Shown here: positions 10,815-49,860 of the stretch, one piece after another
Numbering within the stretch: position 1 is the first letter of the stretch
Layout: each line of letters opens with the position of its first letter
Origin: Minisyncoccia bacterium
GTDB taxonomy: Bacteria > Patescibacteriota > Minisyncoccia > Phycocordibacterales > PALSA-1337
Assembly (NCBI GenBank): GCA_049997795.1
Contig: JBEKVT010000001.1
Location: forward strand, 101,067 to 165,066
Length of the DNA stretch: 64,000 bases
Reading direction: 5' to 3'
Notes under the pieces: model-generated
The model's database searches: none
What the model was told of the DNA's origin: nothing
Seen by the model: the letters and a program-made list of their open reading frames with translations, nothing else
Program-made: the position numbers and the translations under genes

Positions 10815-10815
10815 T

Positions 10816-10887
10816 GCACGCGCCAGGACTTGAACCTGGAACCGATCGCGTATAAGGCGACTGCTCTACCATTGAGCTACGCGTGCG
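10816..10887 (-). tRNA. tRNA-Ile with anticodon UAU as encoded (possible Ile2-type), 72 nt, CCA not encoded
   Basis: Manual fold: acceptor GCACGCG/CGCGUGC, D-arm GCUCAAUGGUAGAGC, anticodon loop CUUAUAC and T-arm CCAGGUUCAAGUCCUGG. Confidence 0.65.
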
Positions 10888-19558: not shown

Positions 19559-19924
19559 TGGTGGAGATGGCGGGAATCGAACCCGCGTGCAATCGAAGCG
19601 AACCGGACGGTTCTACGGCGGTAGTCAGGTTTGATGTCTGACGGCCGTGCTCGAAACGAGACAAAACACATGGCCGCGATCTCTTTGATTCGGATGGCGG
19701 AGTGAGAAGCTCCGCCGCCCTACATCCAGGTTATGACATCGCACTACGGTAAGGATCCCCGTAGATAGACGCGCTCTACTTAAGCGAGAGCGAATGCAAA
19801 GTCCTTCGCTCCGAAATACGGAGAAACGGTTGATTTGGCACTTCAGATTTGGAACGGATTTGCGAGTCATTCCGGCTCGCGCCGCCCGAACGGACGCCGG
19901 CGATTGTCTATGCCGATCATCCCC
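19559..19924 (-). ncRNA. ssrA: tmRNA (ssrA), ~366 nt
   Basis: The 5' end GGGGAUGAUCGGCAUAGAC resembles the tmRNA 5' consensus. The 3' end is tRNA-Ala-like, GGUUCGAUUCCCGCCAUCUCCACCA. The internal tag frame ...GCG AAG GAC UUU GCA UUC GCU CUC GCU UAA gives (A)KDFAFALA*. The ORF-track hits inside this region are spurious. Confidence 0.85.
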
Positions 19925-35787: not shown

Positions 35788-36126
35788 TTACTTCGTGGGA
35801 AGCGGGGCAAGCACCAAGGTGACGTTCGCGGTGCGCTTCTTTATGGGGAAGGCCGAGCCCCGCGCCATCGGCATCGAGCGCTTCAGGGTGCGGCCCTGAT
35901 CGACGCGGATCTCCTTGACGTACAGGTTCTCGGCTTCGAGCTTGAAATTATGAGAGGCATTCGAGACGGCCGAATCGATGAGGTCGGATATCGGGTGGCG
36001 GGCCTTCTTCCCGGCGTTTCCCAGGATGGCCTTGGCTTCGTTCGCATTCTTGCCGCGGATCATATCGGCCACCAGGCGGACCTTGCGGGGAGAGATCCTG
36101 TAGTTTTGAAGGGTGGCGATGATCAT
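35788..36126 (-). CDS. rplV: 50S ribosomal protein L22
   Basis: 112 aa, ...ISPRKVRLVADMIRGK... matches L22. Confidence 0.85.
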   Translation of the reverse strand: MIIATLQNYRISPRKVRLVADMIRGKNANEAKAILGNAGKKARHPISDLIDSAVSNASHNFKLEAENLYVKEIRVDQGRTLKRSMPMARGSAFPIKKRTANVTLVLAPLPTK

Positions 36127-36153
36127 GGCGGTGTGTTGTCGGGCGTCAGCGGA

Positions 36154-36504
36154 TTATTTCTTCGTGTCGGCGGCTAGGGCGGCGGCTTTGGCGGCCTGAG
36201 CAGAAGCGATCTCGGCCTCCTTGGCCTTGATCTCGAGCTCTTTCTGCATCTTGCCGCCGTGGCGGACGAACTTCTTAGTGGGCGAAAATTCACCGAGGCG
36301 GTGTCCTACCATGTCCTCGGTGACGAATACTTCTATATGCTGTTTGCCGTTGTGGACGCCGAAAGTGAAGCCGATCATCTCCGGCGAGATCTGGGAGCGG
36401 CGGGCCCAAGTATTCACCACGCCCAAAGAGGCCGGCTTCTTGCCGGAGATCTTTTTGATGATCGATTCATCGACGTAAGGGCCTTTTTTTAGCGAGCGGG
36501 ACAT
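36154..36504 (-). CDS. rpsS: 30S ribosomal protein S19 with an Ala/Lys-rich C-terminal extension
   Basis: [18 protein letters not shown]... matches S19. Confidence 0.85.
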
Positions 36505-36585
36505 TGAGGCTTGTAGAAAGAAAATCAGCTCCGAGGAGCTTCCCCGCATAGTAGCAGAGCCGTATTTTTAAGTCAATATGATATA

Positions 36586-37386
36586 ATGAGCGGCATCATT
36601 ATGAACGTCTATCTCGTGGCCGCCGTGGTCGTCATCGCCTTGACCGGGGCCGCCATGGCGGCCATTCTGGCCGTCTTGTGGCGCAAGCTCCGTGAGGACG
36701 AGAGCATGAAGCGCGAGTTCGCCTCCATCATCGCCCACAAGTTCCGCACTCCCCTGACCCACATCAAATGGTCGGCCGACAACCTGATCATGAGCGAGAC
36801 GGATCCGTACAGCAAGCGCAGTCTCGCCGACATCAAGGAATCCAACGAGAAGCTCATCAAGCTGACCGGCACGCTCCTCGAGCTTACCGATTCGGACGAC
36901 GCCGCGGTCTCGTCGTACAAATTCGAGCGCCTCGACATCTGTTCCCTGGCCCGGACCGCCGTCGAGGCTTCGAGGAAGGCTCTCCACGAGAAGAACCTGT
37001 TCCTGTCGATCAATTGCGCGGAACCGGAGATATTCGTCAGAGCGGACCGTTCGCGGATGGAGTTCGTCCTAGCCGCTCTCCTCGACAATGCCTGCCTCTA
37101 CAGCCCGCCCGGACGCGACGTCTCTGTGGCCGTGTCGGCAGAAGGCAGCGATGCCGCCATATCGGTCACCGACAACGGCATCGGCATGGCTCCGGCCGAC
37201 ATTTCAAGGGTCTTCACCAAGTTCTTCCGGTCCAAAGAGGCTAAGGCGGCCGACAGCGAGGGGTTCGGCGTCAGCTTGTATCTGGCTCAGAGCGTCGCGA
37301 GGCGCCACGGCGGTAAGATCCGGGCCGAGTCCGAAGGATCGGGCAAGGGCTCGACCTTCAGCGTCGTCCTGCCGAGAGTGAATTGA
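36586..37386 (+). CDS. Sensor histidine kinase (HisKA + HATPase_c), no adjacent response regulator
   Basis: H-box SIIAHKFRTPL, G1 DNGIGM, G2 GFGVSLYLA, and an N-terminal TM helix. Confidence 0.75.
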   Translation: MSGIIMNVYLVAAVVVIALTGAAMAAILAVLWRKLREDESMKREFASIIAHKFRTPLTHIKWSADNLIMSETDPYSKRSLADIKESNEKLIKLTGTLLELTDSDDAAVSSYKFERLDICSLARTAVEASRKALHEKNLFLSINCAEPEIFVRADRSRMEFVLAALLDNACLYSPPGRDVSVAVSAEGSDAAISVTDNGIGMAPADISRVFTKFFRSKEAKAADSEGFGVSLYLAQSVARRHGGKIRAESEGSGKGSTFSVVLPRVN

Positions 37387-37417
37387 TCAGGTATATTTTT
37401 CCGGTCTCCTCCAGTAA

Positions 37418-37852
37418 TCACTTCCTGCCGCGCCGGCGCTTGTAGAAATTCTTCGATTCGCGGGTGATAGCCAGGATGCCGATCACGCCGATATAAGAGG
37501 CGCTGACTTCGGCCGGCAGATGGTATGACGGATTGTAGAAGGTGTCCCCGACGATGAGGGCAAGCACCAGGATCGTCCAGAGGATGGCATAGAGCTCGCC
37601 GGGATGCATGGAGCTGTGCATGTGGTGCCAGCGTCGGAATTCCTTCTCGGCGCTGTATATGGCGAGAAGAGCCGTGTAGATAGCGGCGATGGCCAGGAGA
37701 ACCTCGGCTTTCGAAAGGATATTGTCTTGGTAGAAATCGTAGGCGATGGCCGCGAAGAAGATCGCCGTCCAGAAATTGACCATGTGGCGCCAGAGCTTGA
37801 ACGAACCGGCCTTTTGAAGATCGAAGTGTTTCATGTTTGAGACCTGTATCAC
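37418..37852 (-). CDS. Hypothetical membrane protein
   Basis: 144 aa with four TM helices, directly upstream of the ABC permease gene. Confidence 0.4.
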   Translation of the reverse strand: MIQVSNMKHFDLQKAGSFKLWRHMVNFWTAIFFAAIAYDFYQDNILSKAEVLLAIAAIYTALLAIYSAEKEFRRWHHMHSSMHPGELYAILWTILVLALIVGDTFYNPSYHLPAEVSASYIGVIGILAITRESKNFYKRRRGRK

Positions 37853-39090
37853 TCGAACCGCAGGGCCTCGATGGGGCTCTTCTTGGAAGCTTGGCTAGCC
37901 GGGTAGCCGCCGAAGACCAAGCCGATCACGGTGGAAACCGAGAGCCCGAGGATGACGCCGCTCCACGGGAAGACGAACTGCCAATTGAGAGCCAAGAAGT
38001 GCGACAAGGCAAAAGCGGTCAGGAAGGCCAGACCGGCGCCCAAGACGATGCCTATCACTCCGCCGATCACCGTGAGAAGAACGGCTTCCAGGAGGAATTG
38101 CGTGAGGATGTCGCGGTCTTTCGCCCCGAGAGCCTTCCTCAAGCCGATCTCTCTGGTGCGCTCGGTCACGGAGACCAGCATGATGTTCATGATGCCGACG
38201 CCGCCCACGAATAGGGCGATCGAGGCCACGGCCACAAGGAACCAGGTCAGGGCCGAGGTGATGGTGCCCAGGGTGTTGGCCAGGGTCTGCTGGGTCTCTA
38301 TGGTGAAATCGTCCTTCGTCGGATCGGTGATGTTATGCGATTCCTCCAGGGTCAGCTTGATGTAGCTTGCGGTCACCGGAACGGCCGCGTCGGAGACGGC
38401 TTGGGTGACGATGCGGTTGTAATACTTCTGGCCGGTCACGTACGTCATGGCCGTCGTATAAGGCATGATGACCATGGAGTCGAAATTGAAGAGCGAGCCG
38501 CCGCCTGACTTAGGCAACACCGCCACTATGCGGAAATTGCGGCCTTTTATCTTTATGTTCTGATTCAACGGATCCTGATTGTCGAAAAGGTATTTGGCGA
38601 CGTCGCCGCCTATCACAACCACGCTCAAATACGAGTCCACGTCGCTCTGGTCGAAGAACAGCCCTTCCGAAGGCACAAGGTTGAAAATGTCGGCGATCAA
38701 GTTGGTGCCGCCGAAGATAGTGACCTGATAGGTGTTCGGTCCGTATGAAGCCACATCGGCGCCGATCACGACCGGCATGAGCGACTCTAGGCCGGGCACG
38801 TTCGCTTTGTTCTCGAGGGCCGTCACGTCCTTCGGTTTCAATGAATCGCTGAACAGGGCGGAGGCGTTCGACGACGGATTAGTCGATACTTGGCCGGGGA
38901 TAATGGCGATGGTATTCGTGCCGAGGCCCTGGACCTCGCCCAAGATCAGGTTCTGGGCTCCGGCCCCCAAGGACACCACCAGCATGATGGCGGTTATGCC
39001 GATCACGATGCCGAGGATGGTCAAGGACGACCGCGAACGGTTGGTGGTGAGTCCGGTCAGCGAGGTCTTGAAGGTGTGGCGCCAGGTCAT
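37849..39090 (-). CDS. ABC transporter permease, FtsX/MacB family
   Basis: MTWRHTFKTSL... shows the MacB/FtsX topology: an N-terminal TM helix, a large periplasmic domain and three C-terminal TM helices. The N-terminal 123 aa of the track ORF overlap the ATPase gene and were trimmed. Confidence 0.75.
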   Translation of the reverse strand: MTWRHTFKTSLTGLTTNRSRSSLTILGIVIGITAIMLVVSLGAGAQNLILGEVQGLGTNTIAIIPGQVSTNPSSNASALFSDSLKPKDVTALENKANVPGLESLMPVVIGADVASYGPNTYQVTIFGGTNLIADIFNLVPSEGLFFDQSDVDSYLSVVVIGGDVAKYLFDNQDPLNQNIKIKGRNFRIVAVLPKSGGGSLFNFDSMVIMPYTTAMTYVTGQKYYNRIVTQAVSDAAVPVTASYIKLTLEESHNITDPTKDDFTIETQQTLANTLGTITSALTWFLVAVASIALFVGGVGIMNIMLVSVTERTREIGLRKALGAKDRDILTQFLLEAVLLTVIGGVIGIVLGAGLAFLTAFALSHFLALNWQFVFPWSGVILGLSVSTVIGLVFGGYPASQASKKSPIEALRFE

Positions 39091-39095
39091 ATGGA

Positions 39096-39821
39096 TTATT
39101 TTATGAATTCGTCCTCCGACGTCAGGCGGTCTTTGACCTTGACGTCGCTCTCGATCTCCCCGTCCATGAGCTTCATGATGCGTTCGGCATGGTCGGCCGT
39201 GGTAGCCTCGTGGGTGATGAGGACGATGGTCTTGCCGTGCTCCTCGTTCAGGTGCTGGATGATCGACATGACGTTCTTGCCGGCCTTGGAGTCGAGATTG
39301 CCCGTCGGCTCGTCGGCGAAGATGATCTCCGGATCGTTGACCAGGGCCCTGGCTATGGCCACGCGCTGTTTCTCTCCGCCGGAGAGCTCCGCCTGCTTGT
39401 GATGCATGCGCTGGCCGAGGCCGACGTCTTCGACCGCCTTCCTGGCGCGCTTCTCCCACTCATGCTCCGGCACGCTCGAGTAATAGAGGGGCAGTTTGAC
39501 GTTTTCCAGGACGGTGGTGCGCGGCAGGAGGTTGAAGGCCTGGAAGACGAAGCCGAGCTTCTCGTTCCGGATCTTGGCCAATTCGTTGCCAGAGTAAGAT
39601 GATACGTCTTTGCCGTCGAAGTGATAGACGCCGGAAGTCGGCTCGTCGAGGAGACCCAGAAGGTGGAGTAGGGTCGATTTGCCTGATCCTGACGGACCCA
39701 TGATAGCCAGGAACTCCCCTTTCCTGACGTTGAAAGTCACGCCGTTCAGGGCCACCGTGGCGGTGGCTCCGCCGTCGTGATAGACCTTCTTCAAGTCCTT
39801 GACTTCGATGATGTTAGCCAT
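39096..39821 (-). CDS. ABC transporter ATP-binding protein (MacB/LolD-like)
   Basis: Walker A GPSGSGKST, signature LSGGEKQR and Walker B IIFADEPT. Confidence 0.85.
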   Translation of the reverse strand: MANIIEVKDLKKVYHDGGATATVALNGVTFNVRKGEFLAIMGPSGSGKSTLLHLLGLLDEPTSGVYHFDGKDVSSYSGNELAKIRNEKLGFVFQAFNLLPRTTVLENVKLPLYYSSVPEHEWEKRARKAVEDVGLGQRMHHKQAELSGGEKQRVAIARALVNDPEIIFADEPTGNLDSKAGKNVMSIIQHLNEEHGKTIVLITHEATTADHAERIMKLMDGEIESDVKVKDRLTSEDEFIK

Positions 39822-41296
39822 TACTTCACGTACGTCACTACCTTGTCGCCGACAGAGAGGCCGGAAACGATCTCGATAGTGCCGTAAGAGCCCTTGAGGC
39901 CTGTCACGACGGGCACGGGAGCGTAAGTCTTGCCGTCGGGACTGACAAGGCGCACGGTCTTCGAGCCACTGGTGTCGGTGACGGCCCGATAAGGGATCTC
40001 TAAGACGCCGTCGCGCTCGTGGGTCAGGATCTCGAGATTGGCCGTCATGCCGGAACGGATGCGGCTATCCGGATTCACGAATACCAGAGTGACTTTGTAG
40101 GTCGGTACGCCTTCGAGGACGGTCTCGGCCGGATCGATCATGATGACCTTGGCCGGAAAATCCGTGTCTGAGCCGTAAGCGTCGAGAGTGCTCGACGCCA
40201 GATCGCCGACGGAGACTTTGGCGATATCGGCTTCAGGCACGTAAGCCTCTACCTTGAAATCATTGTTCTGCACCGCGAAGCCGGACTGGCCTGGCGCCGC
40301 GTATTCGCCGACATCCGGGTCGGCCCTGGTGACGACGCCGTCGATCGGCGAGACGAGGGTGTCTTGGTCGAGAAGGGCTTGGGCTTGGGCGACTTTAGCG
40401 GCCAGGGCGGCGATCGATTGGGAGGAATTGCCGGCGAGCTTCAGGTCATAATTGGATTGAGCGGTGGAAAGGCCGGTTTGCGCCGCCGTCACGGAGTCGG
40501 TGGCGGTATTCAGAACGGAAAGCCCGGAATTCATGGTCGCTACGACGGCATTGATCTGGACTTGAGTCATGCTCGAGTTCCCGGGATTCAGCGCATTAAC
40601 GACGACCGAAAGGTCGGTCATGAAGCTCTTCACGGTCGAGAGATACCCGCTTGAGCGCGAGATGAGGCTTGCCGGGTCGAGGGCAGCGCTCAAGAGGTCG
40701 GCTGACCATTGGTTGAGGATCCCTGTGATGTTCAGGCGCTCTTGGTTCAAGGCGGTCTGGATGGGAACGGTGTCGGTGCGGATATAGAGGGTCGGGTTGG
40801 AACTCTGGGGGTTGGAGAAGAAGGCATCGGTGTAATTGAACAGGGCGTTCTGGGCCTTGACGAGGCCGTCATGAGCGGCGTTCAGGGCGTCTTTCTTGGC
40901 GTTGTCGAGCGAGGTCTTCTGGACGGCCAGCTCTTCGGGCGTCAGGCCGCGCGACAGGTCGGCCAAACTAGCTTCGGCGCTTGAGAGGGCCGCCCGATCG
41001 TTGCCGCTGTCGAGCGAAGCTATAAGGTCTCCCCTCTTCACGGCATCGCCAACCTTGACATAGATCCTGGAGATGACTCCGCCCTTCTCGAAAGCCAAGT
41101 CGGCCTTGGCGATCGGCGAGATCGTGCCGGTTACGCTCACCGTTTCTATGACGTTGCCTATTTGGGCCGCGGCCGTCTCGAATATCGGGACAGAACTACC
41201 GCTTCGCGCCCAGACGATGAGGATGACTATGATGATGACGGCGAGCCCGGCGATGACCCACTTATTTTTTAAATACTGCCAATAAGATTTTTTCAT
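39821..41296 (-). CDS. Efflux periplasmic adaptor subunit (HlyD/MacA family)
   Basis: An N-terminal TM helix, a long coiled coil, and beta-barrel/MP domains (SPIDGVVTRADPDVGEY...). Confidence 0.7.
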   Translation of the reverse strand: MKKSYWQYLKNKWVIAGLAVIIIVILIVWARSGSSVPIFETAAAQIGNVIETVSVTGTISPIAKADLAFEKGGVISRIYVKVGDAVKRGDLIASLDSGNDRAALSSAEASLADLSRGLTPEELAVQKTSLDNAKKDALNAAHDGLVKAQNALFNYTDAFFSNPQSSNPTLYIRTDTVPIQTALNQERLNITGILNQWSADLLSAALDPASLISRSSGYLSTVKSFMTDLSVVVNALNPGNSSMTQVQINAVVATMNSGLSVLNTATDSVTAAQTGLSTAQSNYDLKLAGNSSQSIAALAAKVAQAQALLDQDTLVSPIDGVVTRADPDVGEYAAPGQSGFAVQNNDFKVEAYVPEADIAKVSVGDLASSTLDAYGSDTDFPAKVIMIDPAETVLEGVPTYKVTLVFVNPDSRIRSGMTANLEILTHERDGVLEIPYRAVTDTSGSKTVRLVSPDGKTYAPVPVVTGLKGSYGTIEIVSGLSVGDKVVTYVK

Positions 41297-42360
41297 GCGG
41301 TATATTGTAGCATATCGTCCTTGCGCTGTTTAATGAGACTCTCCAGCTTCTTGGCGTTGCCGTGGCTGATCAGGCCGAGGTATGACTGCACAGTCTCCGC
41401 CTTTCCTTGTTTTTGCCGGATGCCTCGGAACATGCGCTTTTTCGTCGCCGTCCGTAGCACTCGATGATCCGGGAAAGTGACCCAACCGAGATAATCGACG
41501 CCAGACGCAATAGTTTTAATTGAGATTTTTCTCGGGTGAAGTTGAAGTTTCAACTTGCTCGATAAAAACTCTTTGATCGGGGGTAAAAGCCCGATGAGCC
41601 ATTCCTTATCGCGGGAAATGATAATGAAATCGTCGGCATAGCGGATATAGTATTTCGCCTTTAATTTGTGCTTCACGAACTGGTCGAACTCGTTCATATA
41701 GACATTCACGAGAAGCTGTGAGGTCAGGTTGCCGAGAGGCAGGCCGATGCCCTTTTTTACTGATGAAAAGCTTTTGATGACCTTTGATAGAAGGCCAACC
41801 GTATTTTTGTCAGGAATACGTTCGTCGAGGATGCCTATTAAAACCTCCTGGTCTATCGACGCGAAGAACTTCCTGATATCGCATTTCAGGACCCAGACGG
41901 TCTTCGTATGATTCTGCGAGGCCTTGTAGGCGAATGACCGGAATCTGTCCATGGCCTTGTGCGTTCCCTTGCCCAGACGGCATGAGAATGAATCAGATAT
42001 GAACCTCCTGTCGAAGAACGGATAAAGTTTCCTGTGCAGTGCATGATGCAACAGCCTGTCTCTCACCTCGGCCTTGTGGATATCGCGGCGCTTGGGATCA
42101 TAGATCCGGAAAAATTCATAAGGCGAGTGCTCGTAAGTTTTGGACGCCAGATCGTTGTGGAGCGAGATGATATTGCCCATCAAATCCCGCTCGAATTCTT
42201 GGACATCCTTGCGTTTTCGTTTCCCTTTTACAAATTCCTTCCAGGCCTCAAGAAGATTTTCGAGAGAAATGATATCATCATAGGCATGAACAAATTGGAT
42301 CCGTCGCAGACCCGTAAAGCCCCCCCCCCACGCAATTTTGCCGGTTTTGAATAAGATCAA
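41293..42360 (-). CDS. Diversity-generating retroelement reverse transcriptase (Brt-like)
   Basis: DGR-specific motif GLPLGNLTSQLLVNVYM (a SQ motif instead of the group II QG) and YADDFIII. The N-terminus ENLLEAWKEFVKGKRKRK and other blocks align with Bordetella phage Brt. An adjacent TR/VR pair is present. Confidence 0.85.
   Translation of the reverse strand: MILFKTGKIAWGGGFTGLRRIQFVHAYDDIISLENLLEAWKEFVKGKRKRKDVQEFERDLMGNIISLHNDLASKTYEHSPYEFFRIYDPKRRDIHKAEVRDRLLHHALHRKLYPFFDRRFISDSFSCRLGKGTHKAMDRFRSFAYKASQNHTKTVWVLKCDIRKFFASIDQEVLIGILDERIPDKNTVGLLSKVIKSFSSVKKGIGLPLGNLTSQLLVNVYMNEFDQFVKHKLKAKYYIRYADDFIIISRDKEWLIGLLPPIKEFLSSKLKLQLHPRKISIKTIASGVDYLGWVTFPDHRVLRTATKKRMFRGIRQKQGKAETVQSYLGLISHGNAKKLESLIKQRKDDMLQYTA
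42320..42329. repeat. Homopolymeric C10 (G10 on the minus strand) tract
   Basis: Read directly from the sequence. It lies in the 5' coding region of the RT (codons W-G-G-G) and just upstream of the avd start. Confidence 0.8.
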
Positions 42361-42688
42361 AGATGCTTATCTGCTTTGGCATGGTTATCACCAGGAATTA
42401 CCGAAAATCCACAGGTATTCGCTAGGATCTCGCATTGACTCGTTATTTATAGAGATCATCGAGGCCGTCGCGGCGGCAAGCTTCTTGTCTCGCGAAGAAA
42501 AACACCCTTACGTGCGCCTGGCGATCAGAAAATCGGATGCGCTCAAGATACTTCTGATGGTCCTCTGGGAAACGAAATCGCTCGACGACAAGAAGTATAT
42601 CGCATTGTCGGTGAAATTGGACGAGGTTGGCAGAAACCTCGGCGGCTGGAGCGGCCAGCTCATGAAACAAAACTCCCCCAACAAATAG
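42338..42688 (+). CDS. avd: Avd-like accessory variability determinant (four-helix-bundle family), encoded divergently from the RT
   Basis: LPKIHRYSLGSRIDSLFIEIIEA and the C-terminal VGRNLGGWSGQLMKQ resemble Avd/four-helix-bundle proteins (compare bAvd ...VGRILGSWIARVNRK). The start is TTG at 42338 or 42347. Confidence 0.65.
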   Translation: MPVLNKIKDAYLLWHGYHQELPKIHRYSLGSRIDSLFIEIIEAVAAASFLSREEKHPYVRLAIRKSDALKILLMVLWETKSLDDKKYIALSVKLDEVGRNLGGWSGQLMKQNSPNK

Positions 42689-42712
42689 TAGGGGGAGAAA
42701 TGAAGAGAGTTA

Positions 42713-42834
42713 CGGACACCGCCGCCGGATTGTCACTGTTCCAGTCGTTGTCGAGCCTGTTGTAGTTCCAGTTCCACCTGTCGTCGTCCCAGTAGAGGTA
42801 ACGGACGTTGAGGTCGCCGTCAGCGTTGCGGTAT
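42713..42834 (-). repeat. DGR template repeat (TR), 122 nt core
   Basis: Hand alignment to the VR gives 122 nt without indels and 24 mismatches, 23 of them at TR adenines on the minus (sense) strand. The TR carries AAC/TAC/GAC codons where the VR has CTC/TTC/GGC and so on. The track ORF 42660..42860 is this repeat, not a gene. Confidence 0.8.
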
Positions 42835-43081
42835 CGTACGAAGTGCCCTCCGTGCCACAACCCCTCGAATGCTCTCGGGGTTGAATCGTATTCGGCATAT
42901 TTAATGCCCTAGCACCTCGTACCAAGTATTTTCATTTTTTAATGAAGTTCTGCATACACCACCCTACCCAAAACCTTGGTCGTGGATATTCTCGATGTAC
43001 GGATACTAGTTTCGGTAGCAAGCAACCTTGGTCGCTCACGTATTCACCTACTCCCGCCCCATCTTACCATACAGAAATCAG

Positions 43082-43109
43082 CCCTGTGCGTTGTCGCACA
43101 GGGCTGAGG
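43082..43109 (-). other. GC-rich hairpin ~55 nt downstream of the VR (cagccctgtgcg-ttgt-cgcacagggctg)
   Basis: Perfect 12-bp stem. Its position is analogous to the hairpin/cruciform 3' of the VR in the Bordetella phage DGR. Confidence 0.5.
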
Positions 43110-43155
43110 TTAAAGGTCATAGGTTCCGAAGAACAAATTGACCGAGGTTCAAGAA

Positions 43156-43779
43156 CTAACTTGCGGACACCGCCGCCGGATGGCCACTGAGCCAGAAGGA
43201 GTCGAGCCAGAAGAAGAGCCAGAGCCACCTGTCGTCGTCCCAGAAGAGGAAACGGACGAAGAGGCCGCCGCCAGCGCGGCGGTATATCGTGCCCCAGAAG
43301 AAGATGTAGCGGGTGTTGCCCTCTTCATCCTTTTTCCACTCCTCAGGGATGAGGTGCGGATTCTTCAGAAGGTAGTCGAGCACGTTGGCGTCCAGGACAG
43401 GCATCTTAGCGAGCTCCTTGCGGAGGTCGTTACCAACGATGGAACTGCCCTTCCTCTGCTTCTTCGACAAGTAGAACTCGATCTTCTTGCCGTCGACGTA
43501 GAGGTCGGGACCTTTCCGTTCGAGCTTGACGATACCGCCCTTGTGGTGCTCCTCGACCGTCCAGTTGTAGCCGGAGGGGATGACCGCATCGACACCGCAG
43601 TCGATGGCGTGTTCAACGGGCTTGATTTCGGCAAGACCTCGTTGGACATCCCTCACGCGGCCGAGGAAATCCCCGACTGTGAGAGCTTTTACTTCTTCCA
43701 GCGACTGGAAGCCGTTGCGGTTGAGTGCATGCTCGATTTCTTGAGCCAAACCAACACCGAGGATTAACTTGTCATTCAT
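43156..43779 (-). CDS. DGR variable (target) protein: N-terminal helix-hairpin-helix domain (ComEA-like), C-terminal variable region; no signal peptide
   Basis: 207 aa. LILGVGLAQEIEHALNRNGFQSLEEVKALTVGDFLGRV resembles an HhH motif. The VR occupies the last ~45 codons (...YRRAGGGLFVRFLFWDDDRWLWLFFWLDSFWLSGHPAAVSAS*). Confidence 0.75.
   Translation of the reverse strand: MNDKLILGVGLAQEIEHALNRNGFQSLEEVKALTVGDFLGRVRDVQRGLAEIKPVEHAIDCGVDAVIPSGYNWTVEEHHKGGIVKLERKGPDLYVDGKKIEFYLSKKQRKGSSIVGNDLRKELAKMPVLDANVLDYLLKNPHLIPEEWKKDEEGNTRYIFFWGTIYRRAGGGLFVRFLFWDDDRWLWLFFWLDSFWLSGHPAAVSAS
43164..43285 (-). repeat. DGR variable repeat (VR) at the 3' end of the target gene
   Basis: Cognate of the TR. The 17-nt 3' end is identical and GC-rich (IMH-like ccggcggcggtgtccg), after which the flanks diverge. 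Confidence 0.8.
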
Positions 43780-43943
43780 GACGTGTTTTTCTCCATAATG
43801 GACATGTTCGTTTAGAACTAGTCTGGTACTGTTGGGCTCCTCGTGTTGAGGTTTGCCACAGCGCTCAAGGACCTGAAGGGATTCAAGTCCCTAAACGCTG
43901 CGGCAAATGCAAGTTAGTCTTTCAAAGACCTTATTACCTTGCT

Positions 43944-43973
43944 ATTATACACCAAATGTGACTTGTATGTCAA
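43944..43973 (-). promoter_or_regulatory. Consensus sigma70 promoter TTGACA-18-TATAAT directed toward the DGR target gene
   Basis: Read on the minus strand. It is followed by a long imperfect hairpin (43853-43906) in the ~155-nt leader, then GGAG and ATG at 43779. Confidence 0.5.
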
Positions 43974-44032
43974 GATGTCCAAATCTGCCTTGAAACAAGG
44001 CCATTTCCTTCCACATAGAGAGGGTATGACGA

Positions 44033-44887
44033 TCAGCTTCCGCTCCTCATCAGTCGGCCGGGATTGCGGCGCGAGACGATGAAGACATTAGAATACTTCT
44101 TGGGAGTGCGGGTCTTCTGGCCCTTGCCCGCGGGCTTGCCCCAGCGGGTCTTCAGGCGGCGCAGGCCGCGGCCTTGGCGCTGTTCGCCGCCGCCGTAAGG
44201 ATGGTCGACCGGGTTCTGGGCGGTGCCGCGCACCGTGGGACGTATCCCCATCCAGCGCGAGCGGCCGGCCTTGCCGATGACCACCAGGCGATTCTCCTCG
44301 TTGGAAACGGCGCCGATCGAAGCCCAGGAATTCTGGTGGACTTTGCGGACCTCGGTCGAAGGCATCTTGATGTGGGTGTAGCCGGCGTCATTGGCGATGA
44401 CTTGGGCGAAAGAACCGGCCGAGCGGACAAGTTTGGCGCCGGAGCCGGGATTGATTTCGATGTTGTAGACGTATGTGCCGACCGGGATGTTCTTCAAAGG
44501 CAGGCGATTGCCTGTCTCGATCGGGGCTTTTTCGGAAACGATGAATGTGTTGCCGACTTTCATGGTCTTCGGCAGGAGGACGTAGCGCTTGGCGCCATCC
44601 CTGTAGGCGACCAGGCCGATGTAGCCGGTGCGGAAGGGATCGTACTCGACGGTCTTCACTGTGGCCGGGATGTCTTTCTTGTCATACAGGAAATCGACGA
44701 GGCGATAGAGCTTCTTGTGGCCGGCGCCCTTGTGGCGGACGGTGATGCGGCCGAAAGCGTTCCTGCCGACGTCGCGCTTGAAACCTGTTGTGAGCGGCTT
44801 GTACGGCTCGGACGCCGTCAAGTATTCCTTGAACGGCAAGGTTGTCATGTGGCGGCGCGATTTGGTTGTGGGTCGGTATGTCTTCAT
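44033..44887 (-). CDS. rplB: 50S ribosomal protein L2
   Basis: 284 aa with the GRNxxGxITxRHxGGGHK pattern. Confidence 0.9.
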   Translation of the reverse strand: MKTYRPTTKSRRHMTTLPFKEYLTASEPYKPLTTGFKRDVGRNAFGRITVRHKGAGHKKLYRLVDFLYDKKDIPATVKTVEYDPFRTGYIGLVAYRDGAKRYVLLPKTMKVGNTFIVSEKAPIETGNRLPLKNIPVGTYVYNIEINPGSGAKLVRSAGSFAQVIANDAGYTHIKMPSTEVRKVHQNSWASIGAVSNEENRLVVIGKAGRSRWMGIRPTVRGTAQNPVDHPYGGGEQRQGRGLRRLKTRWGKPAGKGQKTRTPKKYSNVFIVSRRNPGRLMRSGS

Positions 44888-44896
44888 GGAGCTTGA

Positions 44897-45385
44897 TTAT
44901 ACGAAGTCTATCTTCTCGCCTTTCTTGACGGTGACGATCGCTTTTCTCACGCCGGAAACGGTGCCGCGCCGGCCCTTGACGAAGACATTCTTCGACGGCA
45001 GGTTGACCATGGCGACTTTGACCGGAGTGACCTTGTACAGGGCGCGCATGGCCTTGGCCACTGAAGATTTGTTCGCATTGGAAGTGACCTGGAAAGTGTA
45101 AGCGCCGGATTGGCTCAAGATGCCGGACTTCTCCGTGATGTGCGGACGGATGATGCTCTCGGTCGCGCTTCCGAACGAGCCTTTCGGCAGGGCAGGACCG
45201 GCCTTCCCGGCACCCGCGTCCTTTGTCACGACCGCCGAGGAGATCTTTTCGGGTTTCGGGGACGAGAACTGCTTGGCGCCCTTATCTTTGGCATCGCCCT
45301 TCTTCACTGTCTTGGCCAATTCGGCCGTGGCCTGAATGTGGCTCTGCTCGTGCTTCTTGTCTTTTCTGAATCCGAATAATGGCAT
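44897..45385 (-). CDS. rplW: 50S ribosomal protein L23 with a ~70-aa N-terminal extension
   Basis: The C-terminal core SIIRPHITEKS... matches L23. Confidence 0.75.
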   Translation of the reverse strand: MPLFGFRKDKKHEQSHIQATAELAKTVKKGDAKDKGAKQFSSPKPEKISSAVVTKDAGAGKAGPALPKGSFGSATESIIRPHITEKSGILSQSGAYTFQVTSNANKSSVAKAMRALYKVTPVKVAMVNLPSKNVFVKGRRGTVSGVRKAIVTVKKGEKIDFV

Positions 45386-45395
45386 GGTATTGAAA

Positions 45396-46070
45396 TTATT
45401 TGTCGGTCTTATCCGTCTTCACAGTAAGGGCCTTCAGCGACTCTTCCGGATCTGTAACGATAAGGTATGTATGATTCAAAACGGACACCGGATTCAGGTT
45501 GCGAAACTCCTCGACAGAGACATTGCCAAAATTGCGGAAGCTCTTAGCTACAGCGTCGGTCTTCTGGCCGAGAGCGATCAGGGCGGCGTTCTCCTTCTTC
45601 GTGGCGAGCTTCTCATAGCCCTTGATCTTGGCCAATGAATGCAAAATGGTCCGAGCTTCTTTGGCCTTGGGCGCGGCAAGCTTCATGGCGTCGAGGAAGA
45701 GCACTTCGCCGTCCTTGAATTTCCGGGACAGGATCGTGTAAAGGGCCTTGACCCGGGCCTTCTTGTTTATCTTGCGGGTGAAATTCTTGTCGTTTCTCGG
45801 GCCATGAGCGACGCCGCCGCCGACCCAGATCGGGGAGCGGGTGGAACCGTGGCGGGCCCGGCCGGTGCCCTTCTGCTGCCAGGGCTTCCTGCCGCCGCCG
45901 CGGACCTCGCCGCGGGTCTTGGTGTGAGCGACATTGGTGCGGCTGTTGGAATTCATCAGGCGGACGATCTCATGGACGAGATCGGCATTCCAAGGGACGT
46001 TGAAGATGCTCTCCGGGAGCTTTATCTTCCCTGCGGCCTTACCTTCTTGATTGTATATCGGTGCGTCCAT
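45396..46070 (-). CDS. rplD: 50S ribosomal protein L4
   Basis: The GTGRARHGS motif region; 224 aa. Confidence 0.85.
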
Positions 46071-46089
46071 GGTGATATTGAAATGACGA

Positions 46090-46716
46090 TCAGTTCTTGG
46101 CGACGATCTCGACCAACGTGCCCCGGCGGCCGGGAACCGCTCCGGAAACGTAAAGGATGCTCTCTTCCGGATCGACGTGCACGACCTTCAAGTTCGTGAC
46201 CGTCACCCGGTCCGAACCCATCCTGCCGGCCATCCTGGTACCGACTGGCACGTGAGTGCGCAAGCCGCCGCCGATTGAGCCGGGCTCGCGCTCGGAATGC
46301 TTCTGGCCGTGGGAACGCGGACCGCCGTGGAAGCCGTGGCGCTTGACCACGCCCTGGAAGCCTTTGCCTTTGGAGATGGCGGAGACTTGGACGACGTCGC
46401 CGGCCTTGAATTGGGAGAGTTCCAGCTTGTCGCCGACTTTGGCCGTCGGTCCGCCGGCTGGCGGATCCGTCCGGAATTCCTTGACCGAAGCGAAACTGCC
46501 CAAATCTTTCCACTGGCCCTTCTGGGGCTTAGCGATGCGGCTTGCGTGCCGCGAGCCTTCGCCGACCTGCACGGCTTCATAGCCGTCATTCTCCTTGGTG
46601 CGGACTTGAGTGACGACGTTGCCGCGCACGAGGACGGCCGTAGCGGGGATGGCGGCGCCGGAGGCGTCATAGATCTGGGTCATATTCAGCTTTCTTCCGA
46701 TAATGAATTTCATGAT
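46090..46716 (-). CDS. rplC: 50S ribosomal protein L3
   Basis: MKFIIGRKLNMTQIYD matches the L3 start. The track ORF to 46833 is a spurious extension into the structured spacer. Confidence 0.85.
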   Translation of the reverse strand: MMKFIIGRKLNMTQIYDASGAAIPATAVLVRGNVVTQVRTKENDGYEAVQVGEGSRHASRIAKPQKGQWKDLGSFASVKEFRTDPPAGGPTAKVGDKLELSQFKAGDVVQVSAISKGKGFQGVVKRHGFHGGPRSHGQKHSEREPGSIGGGLRTHVPVGTRMAGRMGSDRVTVTNLKVVHVDPEESILYVSGAVPGRRGTLVEIVAKN

Positions 46717-46722
46717 CTTTAC

Positions 46723-46845
46723 GAACGGTAGCGGATGTCCTTCTCGATACGCGGAAAGTTTTCTGCAGAAAACTTTCCTAATCCTCGACGATTCTCTGCT
46801 GAGAATCGTCTGCGGACATATCTCGAAAGACATCCGCTACCGTTC
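46723..46845 (-). other. Structured intergenic element between rpsJ and rplC: a 17-bp outer stem enclosing two perfect hairpins (three-way junction)
   Basis: Outer stem gaacggtagcggatgtc/gacatccgctaccgttc. Inner palindromes are ggaaagttttctg-cagaaaactttcc and gacgattctc-tgct-gagaatcgtc. Confidence 0.55.
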
Positions 46846-46853
46846 TTTCAAAA

Positions 46854-47273
46854 CTACATCATCTTGACGTCGATGTTCACGCCGGACGGAAGGGAGAGAT
46901 TGGTCAGGGCTTCGATGACCTTCTGGTTCGGGTTGACGATGTCGATCAGGCGCTTGTGCACCCTCATCTCGAACTGCTCGCGGGCGTTCTTGTCTATGAA
47001 CGACGAGCGGTTGACCGTGTACTTCTTGATCTCGGTCGGGAGGGGCGTCGGGCCGTGGATCACGGCGTCGTAACGGGCAGCCGTGTCCATTATCTGGCGC
47101 AAGCTGGCATCGAGGATCTTGTGCTCGTAGGCGCGCACCCGGATCCTAAGGTGCGGCACTTCGCCTGCCGGCTTGGCCTTGCGCGAGCGCACCGGCTTTC
47201 CGGCCGACACGGACTTCGCTGCGGCGGATGGCGCGGCGGCTTTCTTCTTGGTTGTTTCTTTCGCTGTCGCCAT
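46854..47273 (-). CDS. rpsJ: 30S ribosomal protein S10 with a ~35-aa basic N-terminal extension
   Basis: The core LRIRVRAYEHKILD... matches S10. Confidence 0.85.
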   Translation of the reverse strand: MATAKETTKKKAAAPSAAAKSVSAGKPVRSRKAKPAGEVPHLRIRVRAYEHKILDASLRQIMDTAARYDAVIHGPTPLPTEIKKYTVNRSSFIDKNAREQFEMRVHKRLIDIVNPNQKVIEALTNLSLPSGVNIDVKMM

Positions 47274-47302
47274 GTTCTTGATCTTTATCTCGTGACAGAC
47301 GG

Positions 47303-48490
47303 TTAGGCGATTACTTTGGTGACCACGCCCGAGCCGACGGTCTTGCCGCCCTCGCGGACGGCAAAGCGTATCTGGGCTTCGAGAGCGACGGGTGCGACGA
47401 GCTTCACCTTGAAGCTGGCGGTGTCGCCGGGCATGACCATCTCCACCTTTTCCGGCAGAGTGACCTCGCCGGTCACATCGGTGGTACGGATGTAGAACTG
47501 CGGCTTGTAGCCGGTGAAGAACGGGGTGTGGCGTCCGCCCTCTTCCTTCTTCAGGATATAGACTTCAGCCTCGAATTCGGTGTGGGGCTTGACGGAGCCG
47601 GGTTTGGCCAGGACCTGGCCGCGGGAGACGTCATCCTTGGCAGTGCCGCGCAGGAGGATACCGGCGTTGTCGCCGCAAATGCCTTCTTTCAGGGACTTAT
47701 TGAACATCTCGATGCCTGTCACGACTGTCTTCACCGTATCCCTGAAGCCGACTATCTCGACTTCGTCGCTGATCTTGACCTTGCCGCGCTCGATCCTGCC
47801 GGTCACGACGGTGCCACGGCCTTCGATCGAGAAGATGTCTTCTATCGGCATGAGGAACGGCTTATCGACGTCGCGGACCGGTTCCGGGATGAAGGTATCG
47901 ATGGCATCCATGAGCTCGTCGATCTTCCCCGTCCAGACCGGATCGCCTTCGAGGGCCTTCAGGGCCGAACCGCGGATGACCGGGGCGTTCTTGCCGTCGA
48001 ATTCGTACTTGGTGAGGAGCTCGCGCACCTCTTCCTCGACCAGATCGATCAAGTCCTTCTCCTCCACCATGTCGCACTTGTTGAGGAAGACCAGGACCTT
48101 CGGCACGCCGACCTGGCGGGCCAGAAGGATGTGCTCCCTGGTCTGGGGCATGACGCCGTCCTGGGCGGACACGACCAGGATGGCTCCGTCCATCTGGGCG
48201 GCGCCGGTGATCATATTCTTGACGAAGTCGGCGTGGCCGGGACAGTCGATGTGGGCGTAGTGGCGCTTCGGCGTCTCGTACTCGACGTGCGAGAGCGAGA
48301 TGGTGACGGTCTTGGTGGCGTCACGGACGGTGCCGCCTTTGGTGATGTCGGCGTAAGCCTTGAGCTTGGCCATGCCCTTCTTGGCCTGGACGGCCAGGAT
48401 GGCGGCGGTCAAGGTGGACTTGCCGTGGTCGATGTGACCGATCGTGCCGACGTTCACGTGCGGCTTATTGCGATTGAATTCAGCTGCCAT
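47303..48490 (-). CDS. tuf: Elongation factor Tu
   Basis: [16 protein letters not shown] and NKCD GTPase motifs; 395 aa. Confidence 0.95.
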
Positions 48491-48605
48491 ATTATTTACT
48501 TAGTGCTTTGGCTTCCAACGTGCGGGCGCGAACGCCGCGCGACGGGCGCCAAAGATAAAGTTGTTAATAGCGATTTATAAAACGCCGGGTAGGCGTGTAA
48601 ATCAG

Positions 48606-48645: not shown

Positions 48646-49860
48646 CTAGACCCCGTCCTCTGATTTCCTGTTTAAGAATTCAGGGACAAAACCATTTTCT
48701 TCCAGAGCTCTTACTACATCCCTGAGAAGATAATTGTTACGGAACTGAATTGTATATTTTCTGCTTTTATTGCCCTTGGTCGGCACGAGCATCTCTTTAT
48801 CCTTTAACCGTTTAATTATGCGCGACCTTTGAACAGGCGAAGCCTCGTTCAATGCAGCTTTTATGTCTAAGGATTTAATCGTCATATCCTTAGTCTTAAC
48901 AACACAGCTCAAAACAGCATGCTCCTGATTATTTATACTCTTACGTTCAAGAGAATATCGGAGCGCGGGTATGAGAATGGTATCGGTGATATATTCCAAG
49001 TTAAGCAATTTATCAATTTTTTCTATCTCTTTACGTAAACCGTTTAGAACATATTCGCACCATTCAAGAACTTTGACTTCATCGCCAGTATCGGCAACCG
49101 CAAGCATTTCATAGTATTTCGCTCGATCCATACAAAAAATAGCAGTGGGGTTCAATATACGCCCTGTCTTAACCTGGAATCCTTGTTTGATTAACAGGGC
49201 GTATGTGAACATTCGGACAAATCTACCGTTGCCGTTATCAAATGGATGTATCCAAGCCATTCGGTGATGGGCAAGCGCAGTAATAAGCAGATGATACTTG
49301 GAACTGACAGAGGCATTAACAAATGTCATAAGTTCTTCAAAATATTCAGGCACCTTAATGCTCTTTGGTGGGACATGCGGCGACCCTGTAATCGATACAT
49401 CCACTGGTCTCAAGGCGCCAGGATAGTGAGAACCCTCTCCCCCTGGGGGAGGTGTGAGATCTTTTACAATAATCCTGTGTATTTCGGAAATCAGGGCGCG
49501 GTCAAAGATAGTTGTCTTCTTTATATTTTTCTCAATAAAATCAATGACATCTTCCAAATTAAAAATCTCTTTCATGCTTTCGTCCGCAGTAGCTCTGGAA
49601 GGATTTTCTATTACCTTTTCGACAAATTCCATCAGGGTCGTTCTATTCCCCTCAATGCGAGCAGATCCGAGGCTCTCAAATAATTGAAAAATCTCCTTCA
49701 ATTGGAAAAATACATGTGGTGGAACTGGGCCTCCAAGCCTTTTAACCCTTAATTTCTCTAGCTCTATGATAGTAGTCGCTAAATCAGAGCTCCATTTTGG
49801 ATCATAGAGCTTGAGTTCTGTGTGTTTAAATTGTTTAGTATTTTCCTTATCCATAATCAT
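48646..49860 (-). CDS. Fic/Doc (Fido) family protein, class II (N-terminal inhibitory S-x-x-x-E-G motif), C-terminal winged-helix domain
   Basis: The Fic active-site motif HPFDNGNGRFVR and the N-terminal SARIEGN inhibitory-helix motif. The coding GC content (~40%) is much lower than in the flanking genes. Confidence 0.8.
   Translation of the reverse strand: MIMDKENTKQFKHTELKLYDPKWSSDLATTIIELEKLRVKRLGGPVPPHVFFQLKEIFQLFESLGSARIEGNRTTLMEFVEKVIENPSRATADESMKEIFNLEDVIDFIEKNIKKTTIFDRALISEIHRIIVKDLTPPPGGEGSHYPGALRPVDVSITGSPHVPPKSIKVPEYFEELMTFVNASVSSKYHLLITALAHHRMAWIHPFDNGNGRFVRMFTYALLIKQGFQVKTGRILNPTAIFCMDRAKYYEMLAVADTGDEVKVLEWCEYVLNGLRKEIEKIDKLLNLEYITDTILIPALRYSLERKSINNQEHAVLSCVVKTKDMTIKSLDIKAALNEASPVQRSRIIKRLKDKEMLVPTKGNKSRKYTIQFRNNYLLRDVVRALEENGFVPEFLNRKSEDGV

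Follow-up and report, generated by a model that had tools for sequence, protein, structure and literature searches.

A diversity-generating retroelement of the Patescibacteria type, probably intact but quiet, between rplB and rpsS of a Minisyncoccia bacterium

The element and its parts

The window, by which we mean the whole 64,000-nucleotide stretch of DNA analysed here, comes from a Minisyncoccia bacterium (GenBank assembly GCA_049997795.1, contig JBEKVT010000001.1, positions 101,067 to 165,066 of the forward strand), and positions below are counted from its first letter. Between its ribosomal-protein genes rplB and rpsS lies a complete diversity-generating retroelement (DGR), with a reverse transcriptase (RT), an Avd protein, a template repeat (TR) and a target gene bearing the variable repeat (VR), all at the coordinates given in an earlier note that had been made from the sequence without database searches. 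We are confident, well short of certainty, that this is a chromosomal DGR of the lineage found in Patescibacteria, also called the candidate phyla radiation (CPR), that it has the B3 architecture, that it is intact but quiet, and that its rplB-rpsS site is lineage-specific. The core consists of the following open reading frames (ORFs) and repeats.

43156..43779, minus strand: DGR target gene, 207 aa, with no N-terminal hydrophobic segment
43164..43285, minus strand: VR, forming the final 40 codons of the target; the 17-18 nt at its 3' end (43181-43164) equal the TR, are GC-rich and resemble an initiation of mutagenic homing (IMH) sequence
43108..43155, minus strand: tandem CCTTNG-like units between the VR stop codon and a terminator hairpin, seen in the alignment of relatives
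42713..42834, minus strand: TR, 122 nt, with 32 adenines
42338..42688, plus strand, opposite to RT, TR and VR: avd, 116 aa, matching NCBIfam DivGenRetAVD and Pfam bAvd
41293..42360, minus strand: RT ORF, 355 aa from a TTG at 42360, with LGNLTSQ and YADD and a Pfam RVT_1 match

Template and variable repeats

The TR and VR align over all 122 nt without indels at an offset of 451, as had been proposed. The tabulation of mismatches by TR base, which the earlier note had offered as a check, puts 23 of the 24 on TR adenines of the minus strand (13 A>T, 6 A>C and 4 A>G), and the sole mismatch elsewhere is a G>T at TR 42746. With 32 A per 122 nt, the binomial probability of at least 23 of 24 mismatches falling on A is about 1e-12. 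The VR is changed relative to the TR at 23 of the 32 A sites. Nearly all of the TR adenines (31/32) stand in codon positions 1-2, with GAC occurring 8 times among the A-bearing codons, AAC 7 times and TAC 4 times, so that the reported richness in these three codons holds by count. The translated TR is YRNADGDLNVRYLYWDDDRWNWNYNRLDNDWNSDNPAAVS, and the translated VR is YRRAGGGLFVRFLFWDDDRWLWLFFWLDSFWLSGHPAAVS.

The arrangement is that of a DGR, with the TR sitting between the target and avd/RT, and the VR closing the target ORF at 43156-43779. The VR had been assigned to the last ~45 codons of that ORF; its C-terminal placement stands, and its extent is the last 40. At the 3' end the repeats are identical and GC-rich over 17-18 nt, where 17 had been counted, and directly after this IMH-like end the two sequences part, each going on into a flank of its own that is kept in relatives. 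The CCTTNG-like region is kept in relatives after the VR and is absent after the TR, which makes it a candidate part of target-site recognition, to which its units may contribute.

The relatives come from a scan of one genome per species, which found them in 366 genomes, and 80 loci were fetched. Downstream of the target, 46 of the 80 have a reverse-strand Avd match, and 37 of these also have an RT match on the target strand. A TR/VR pair could be delimited in 35 of these loci, where the mismatches sum to 562 at A and 17 elsewhere, a bias that is somewhat inflated because the TR/VR scoring tolerated A mismatches.

Reverse transcriptase and Avd

Translation of the 355-aa minus-strand ORF gives the LGNLTSQ and YADD that had been named for it. 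These are the motifs of DGR-clade RTs, [LIV]GxxxSQ with SQ in place of QG, and YxDD, and the sequence similarity agrees with them. Among solved structures the best relative is the Bordetella phage RT, Brt, scoring E = 1.1e-48 against PDB ID: 8ub7_A over residues 27-331, followed by a group II intron RT at 4e-17, which bears out the resemblance to Brt that had been pointed out. Between the RT of the window and those of related loci, identity is 49-70%. An exact-sequence look-up of the 355-aa protein gave no match; gene callers place the RT start elsewhere, which yields proteins of 295 or 347 aa, and look-ups with Avd and the target succeeded.

The Avd protein matches NCBIfam DivGenRetAVD over its full length with E = 7.2e-15 (55 bits, cut-off 80) and Pfam bAvd with E = 1.5e-8 (35.6 bits, cut-off 40). 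An Avd-like ORF is therefore present as had been claimed, with the qualification that avd is on the plus strand, opposite to the rest of the element.

Two properties of the surroundings had also been read correctly. From 41200 to 43200 the GC content is 0.46-0.52, and the flanks have about 0.58-0.62, in line with the estimate of ~48% in the module and ~60% outside. The attribution to a CPR-like genome is right because an identical target protein is deposited as a metagenome-assembled genome protein of a 'Minisyncoccia bacterium'; the named homologues are all from Patescibacteria, and the longest contig bearing the target is 657 kb.

The template RNA

The region between the target and avd holds more than the TR, and the comparison of relatives brings out the following.

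43061..43069, minus strand: extended -10 element TGGTAAGAT (TGnTAnnAT) for the TR RNA, kept in relatives
42835..43056, minus strand: structured 5' leader of the TR RNA, about 222 nt, directly 5' of the TR
42663..42712, minus strand: TR 3' flank GCAACUCUCUUCAUUU, then a hairpin at 42697-42673 and a U-tract, an intrinsic terminator overlapping the avd stop codon

The leader presents the 11-mer CGACCAAGGTT in two hairpin loops, at 43034-43024 and 42982-42972, and has a conserved single-stranded segment AAAUGAAAA at 42937-42929. From an alignment of 34 species (A3), RNAalifold obtains a structure of 54 pairs, 41 of them with compensatory double changes. With this structure fixed, 97.3% of cells pair, compared with 37-48% when the partners are slid by 1-3 columns, and the observed covariation was reached by none of 500 shuffles. 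The window copy of the leader has the highest nhmmer score of all copies, at 229 bits. Rfam gives the leader no match at the gathering threshold in a scan of the whole window, RT-1 to RT-19 included, and no relevant match at E up to 10 over 42300-44040. We did not find the leader described in the searchable literature, which did not take in Paul et al. 2017.

With a 40-nt degenerate pattern built on the leader we recovered at least 119 metagenomic loci, plus a single contig in IMG/VR, and these 120 loci all carry the full leader and the layout leader, TR, reverse avd, RT. A 16-nt word of the leader was also tried in IMG/VR and gave 120 stretches, none of which has the leader, so these were put down to chance. 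Counted together, over 150 CPR DGR loci have the leader, irrespective of the family to which their target belongs. In 37 complete leader loci with at least 900 nt upstream, the upstream region has no homologue of the window's target family, and hence the leader belongs to the DGR core and not to the target.

On the other side of the TR, UCUUCAUUU in the 3' flank (42706-42698) is complementary to the single-stranded leader segment at 42937-42929. The helix they would form is 91% paired among the relatives, and 5 of its 9 pairs are compensated. The hairpin and U-tract that follow also covary, and are kept in 33 loci. Helix and terminator together suggest a separate TR RNA of about 390 nt, with leader and 3' flank pairing around a looped-out TR. 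When the full RNA is folded, RNAalifold also offers a helix between CCAGUA of the leader and UACUGG of the TR; it has almost no covariation and its TR side is under coding constraint, and we do not rely on it.

What the leader may be for is best seen against BPP-1, where a 140-nt Spacer on the downstream side of the TR carries the RNA elements that are essential (Handa et al.). They are an Avd-binding stem-loop, a priming adenosine, the 'cPRT stop' duplex, a thumb ring and an RT-binding stem-loop (Handa et al.). In the published survey of other DGRs, the region examined reached no farther than 40 nt before the TR and 100 nt after it (Handa et al.). B3 elements leave no room on that downstream side, which makes the leader 5' of the TR the natural candidate for the Spacer roles, and we infer that in these elements it may fill them.

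The target gene and its messenger RNA

The target has signals of its own for the start and end of transcription.

43944..43973, minus strand: promoter TTGACA, 18-nt spacer, TATAAT, agreeing with the sigma-70 consensus at 12/12 positions
43780..43943, minus strand: structured 5' leader of the target mRNA, with the box CTAACTTGC at 43917-43909 and a hairpin at 43907-43852
43078..43107, minus strand: GC-rich hairpin of 13 bp with a 4-nt loop, then a T-run, terminator-like for the target gene

A 12-bp GC hairpin had been described as following the VR. The hairpin is there, with 13 bp and a T-run, and it is not directly adjacent, lying 57 nt past the VR end. Hairpin and T-run are kept at the same place downstream of the target in relatives, and the structure at 43107-43078 looks like the terminator of the target gene.

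In the target leader, the hairpin at 43907-43852 has 17 pairs, 11 of them with compensatory changes (alignment A5). The structured leader is conserved family-wide, including beside targets that are without their DGR. The box CTAACTTGC is complementary over 9 nt to GCAAGTTAG, which covers the end of the ORF and its stop codon (43164-43156); this was spotted by eye, and the complementarity recurs in relatives and covaries in part. RNAduplex between the target 5' untranslated region and the region after the VR was uninformative, giving long spurious duplexes with z near 0.

The target protein has no match in sequence searches of Pfam, NCBIfam and PDB. Its AlphaFold2 model, made from a 40-sequence alignment, is confident, with a predicted local distance difference test (pLDDT) score of 94; in it an N-terminal three-helix unit is followed by a small beta domain and a C-terminal domain to which the VR would contribute the last strands. 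Foldseek of the model against PDB finds nothing significant. The C-terminal half looks weakly C-type-lectin-like, and the 207-aa protein is probably cytoplasmic. The target family has more than 880 members of about 200 aa, every named member is from Patescibacteria, and none has a Pfam domain. Across the family alignment, the columns that vary are those of the A-templated VR positions, set in a conserved scaffold.

Decayed cassettes among the relatives

Relatives without an RT show truncated leaders, so that decay is visible where it has occurred. Targets standing as 'orphans' are found with truncated leader remnants, or with a full leader and TR and no avd or RT (L021, L036, L043, L049, L087, L094, and also L032 and L033), and the target family shows repeated loss of the DGR core. 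A further decayed cassette is inside the spc ribosomal operon of a Nomurabacteria genome (L027:9261-11400, JAPLXV010000011). A target and a leader cut short at model position 155 are present in it, and TR, avd and RT are missing. The cassette sits between rplE and the ribosomal gene that follows, bordered by rplE and by another fragment of the 3' end of rplE.

Activity and the start of the RT

The objective here is to judge whether the window copy still works, and two kinds of evidence bear on it, namely variation in the population and the way the RT would be started. The latter involves one more feature.

42320..42329, minus strand: poly-G tract separating the avd and RT starts, 10 G in the window and 9, 10 or 11 G in different assemblies of this population

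For the population comparison, 12.6 kb (36000-48600) were compared in about 20 contigs from many JGI, ENA and Logan samples, at the level of the assembly consensus. The stretch is near-identical throughout, and the recurrent differences are at 43271, in the length of the poly-G and at 44200 in rplB, with a few singletons besides. The difference at 44200 is a recurrent C/A single-nucleotide polymorphism (SNP) in 3 contigs, one of the two recurrent SNPs of the 12.6 kb. The other is a G/A (minus strand) at VR position 43271, protein G170D (P0121), found in at least 4 contigs and the only VR polymorphism in the population, so that at the consensus level the VR, clearly diversified in the past, is today almost fixed. 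This variant restores the TR base at an A-templated position of the VR. The chance that a SNP lands on an A-templated VR site is about 0.25% per SNP (32 in 12,600), and the location is suggestive. The variant is no canonical retrohoming product, be it of a full or a 3'-anchored event, because the 22 other substitutions are kept and the site is near the VR 5' end. Partial retrohoming or TR-to-VR gene conversion was considered as its source and set aside, the site being 5'-proximal and the mismatches 6-7 nt away unchanged.

A tract of 7-14 G stands between the avd and RT starts in 28 related loci, and this conservation, together with the 9/10/11 polymorphism, suggests a functional element. We put forward as a hypothesis that it may be a phase-variable element or a ribosome-binding site. 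In relatives the RT begins with an ATG 4-19 nt downstream of the poly-G, for example 'ctgacATGcgacggattcaattt' in the closest relative, L018. In the window the codon homologous to that ATG is a CTG at 42309-42307 (minus strand), and the canonical in-frame RT starts lie only upstream of the poly-G, in a frame that depends on the G count. They are a TTG at 42360 with 10 G, an ATG at 42382-42380, after GGTGAT, with 9 G, and a TTG at 42335-42333 with 11 G.

These observations can be taken to mean that the cassette is a fossil, in which the VR was diversified formerly, the RT has lost its start, and the VR is now an ordinary fixed segment. The change of the RT ATG to CTG, which leaves its sole canonical in-frame starts upstream across a slippery poly-G, speaks for this, and so does the fact that about 20 assemblies, taken from many samples, are identical in the VR and over the entire cassette. 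Loss of the core beside this target family is moreover common, since neither Avd nor RT gave a match in 34 of the 80 loci, and leader matches, from full-length down to under 65 nt, occur in 16 loci that have neither. In the window, however, the elements that are visibly truncated in relatives where function was lost are in good order. The RT (355 aa) and Avd ORFs are uninterrupted, the TR keeps its 32 A, and the leader, with its top nhmmer score, and the terminator are intact. At each of 9, 10 and 11 G there is an upstream start in frame with the RT, and one of only two recurrent SNPs in the 12.6 kb falls on an A-templated VR site, at about 32/12,600 per SNP. We regard a fossil as unlikely, if worth keeping in mind, and conclude that the element is intact, was recently functional, and is at present probably of low or switchable activity.

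Genomic location and neighbors

The genes around the element were compared with the neighborhoods of the relatives, since its position had been described as embedded in the ribosomal-protein operon. Along the minus strand come tuf, rpsJ, rplC, rplD, rplW, rplB, target, TR, avd (plus strand), RT, HlyD-type adaptor, ATPase and permease, and the permease is followed by a 138-aa ORF, a histidine kinase on the opposite strand, rpsS, rplV and rpsC.

44033-44887, minus strand: rplB
41296-39821, minus strand: HlyD-type adaptor of a MacAB-like efflux system
39821-39096, minus strand: ATP-binding cassette (ABC) ATPase of the same MacAB-like efflux system
39090-37849, minus strand, as called in related contigs: MacB-type permease; the window ORF runs from a GTG at 39459
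37418-37834, minus strand: 138-aa ORF with no known domain, beside the histidine kinase
36586-37386, plus strand, opposite to its neighbors: histidine kinase, starting 36 nt from the rpsS start
36154-36549, minus strand: rpsS, not directly beside the DGR

The element does lie between rplB and rpsS, and 'embedded' overstates its place, as the two genes are 7.5 kb apart, splitting the S10 cluster, and the DGR makes up 2.7 kb of that block. Since the kinase runs on the opposite strand and starts 36 nt from the start of rpsS, transcription of rpsS and of the genes that follow calls for a promoter within or past the kinase gene. The RT stop overlaps the start of the HlyD-type adaptor (ATGA, 41296-41293), which suggests that in this genome the RT would be co-transcribed with the MacAB-like efflux system. 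A general link between DGRs and such transporters was considered and dropped: in L018 the transporter is 4.6 kb upstream of the target, and other relatives have no transporter nearby.

A further question is whether the ribosomal position has a function, such that CPR cassettes would target these operons for expression or for coupling to growth. The decayed Nomurabacteria cassette between rplE and the next ribosomal gene, from the same family, would fit such a function, as would the five CPR DGRs already noted to be interleaved with ribosomal-protein genes (Wu et al. 2018, PMC5758913). Among 81 family loci, however, only the window genome has its cassette between rplB and rpsS; L018, on an 876-kb chromosome, has it elsewhere, and in the Nomurabacteria genome rplB and rpsS are adjacent as usual. 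None of the 120 leader-bearing metagenomic loci has rplB, rpsS or rplW near the leader. The two ribosomal loci among the 81 are about what chance would give for a cluster of roughly 15 kb in a genome of 0.6-0.9 Mb. The target furthermore has its own promoter and terminator, and the operon is already interrupted by the kinase gene on the opposite strand. We therefore consider a functional position very improbable, and treat the rplB-rpsS site as a lineage-specific rearrangement or insertion that is incidental and no part of the mechanism.

Elsewhere in the window, a Fic-domain gene (48646-49860, minus strand) is inserted between fusA and tuf in the region of the str operon. A tRNA-Ile gene with anticodon TAT lies at 10814-10886 (minus strand) and a tmRNA gene at 19559-19924 (minus strand).

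Identity weighed

That the locus is no DGR at all, and consists of a group II intron or retron RT beside a partial duplication of the 3' end of a neighboring gene, we consider refuted for practical purposes by the A-bias, the NCBIfam scores, the affinity to Brt and the recurrence of the layout: the top NCBIfam match of the RT is indeed the group II intron RT/maturase model TIGR04416 at 140 bits, and retron and Drt models also score, but the group II model tops the list because NCBIfam has no DGR RT model, and all these models stay far under their cut-offs (300 for TIGR04416; 67 bits against 235 for the retron RT), Brt is better than the other solved relatives by more than 30 orders of magnitude, Rfam scans of the window find no intron or retron RNA, a duplication would not restrict 23 of 24 differences to adenines, Avd is present, and the same layout with A-biased TR/VR pairs is found in 35 other species.

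Some points nonetheless weigh against an intact, if quiet, B3 DGR as we describe it. Both Avd scores are slightly under their curated cut-offs, and the A bias of the relatives carries the inflation mentioned with it. The variant at 43271 may be an ordinary point mutation, and that so many samples share one VR consensus speaks against frequent retrohoming. It is from conservation that we propose where priming takes place, what the leader does and how far the TR RNA extends.

Proposed mechanism

The single steps of how the element would work are modelled on homology to BPP-1. An RNA of about 390 nt would be transcribed from the extended -10 promoter at about 43069-43061, made up of the leader (about 222 nt), the TR (122 nt) and a short 3' flank closed by the terminator (42697-42673). 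A segment of the leader would pair with the 3' flank and loop out the TR. For its translation the RT probably has to rely on a weak start, which would be the CTG or else a TTG farther upstream, read through the poly-G tract of variable length. The RT-Avd complex would then bind the TR RNA and copy the TR into cDNA, misincorporating opposite adenines, and the cDNA would replace the VR (43285-43164), guided by the identical GC-rich 3' end (IMH) and by the VR-specific sequence downstream of it. In consequence the target would have about 20 residues recoded, on a C-terminal surface that is weakly C-type-lectin-like.

Extended to the whole CPR lineage of DGRs, the proposal is that a structured 5' domain replaces the 3' Spacer of BPP-1 in RT and Avd binding, priming and cDNA stop, that this domain pairs with the 3' flank, that a terminator closes the RNA, and that the poly-G is a possible phase-variable switch or rheostat of the diversification machinery. 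We offer this tentatively, as a model that could well turn out wrong in the end.

Significance

The element of the window is an ordinary member of a known CPR-specific B3 lineage of DGRs, a class that is already well populated, and its ribosomal-operon setting proves incidental. B3 DGRs dominate in CPR, and we did not find their mechanism in the searchable literature. What the comparison of relatives exposes is a covarying RNA domain before the template that is clade-wide, a terminator that follows the template at once, and a run of G separating avd from RT. If this RNA architecture and the poly-G are indeed undescribed, the mechanism of B3-type DGRs becomes directly testable. Should the 5' domain in fact take the place of the Bordetella Spacer, it would give a concrete and testable model of how B3 cDNA is primed and bounded, as well as a compact RNA scaffold that could serve engineered DGR mutagenesis. 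The leader is also a sensitive marker, which finds DGR cores and recognises decayed cassettes beside 'orphan' targets.

Comparison with known systems

The nearest known systems are the DGRs of CPR. The B3 architecture, TR-(avd)-RT, makes up 90% of the CPR DGR set and is near-absent elsewhere (Wu et al. 2018, PMC5758913), and DGR clade 2 is restricted to Patescibacteria, cellular, and directed at targets without recognisable domains (Roux et al. 2021, PMC8144416). The window element is of this type, with the TR upstream of a reverse-strand avd and then the RT, in a Patescibacteria host. It shares with B3 DGRs and clade 2 the gene order, the reverse avd, the host phylum, the C-terminal VR and its nature as a cellular element, and its target is small, with no recognisable domain or transmembrane segment. 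That the element is cellular and not viral follows from the leader pattern, which has one IMG/VR match only. Nothing essential separates the window element from the CPR B3 DGRs. The traits particular to this copy are the rplB-rpsS site, the CTG in place of the RT ATG, and a host GC of about 60% against about 48% in the cassette. The leader RNA, the poly-G and the structure in the target 5' untranslated region are common to the CPR clade, and we did not find them described in a literature that excluded Paul et al. 2017.

BPP-1, with the order mtd-avd-TR-brt, has a homologous RT with I/LGxxxSQ and YxDD, an Avd, and adenine-specific differences between TR and VR. A GC-rich IMH-like VR end and a hairpin downstream of the VR are likewise common to both, and in both a duplex of TR-flanking sequences would loop the TR out (compare the avd:Sp 'cPRT stop'). 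The window element differs in being cellular and not phage-borne, and in having its avd inverted and downstream of the TR. Its terminator, within 15 nt of the TR, leaves no room for a 140-nt Spacer, and its large structured RNA domain is 5' of the TR. The hairpin downstream of the VR is 57 nt away and terminator-like, and the target has 207 aa and no tail-fibre context.

The third comparison is with the C-type-lectin proteins diversified by DGRs, namely Mtd, Treponema TvpA (PDB ID: 2y3c) and the archaeal AvpA. In these, as in the model of the window target, the VR makes up the C-terminal strands of a compact domain. The window target differs in having no sequence similarity to any solved structure, and its membership in the C-type-lectin family is for that reason unproven.

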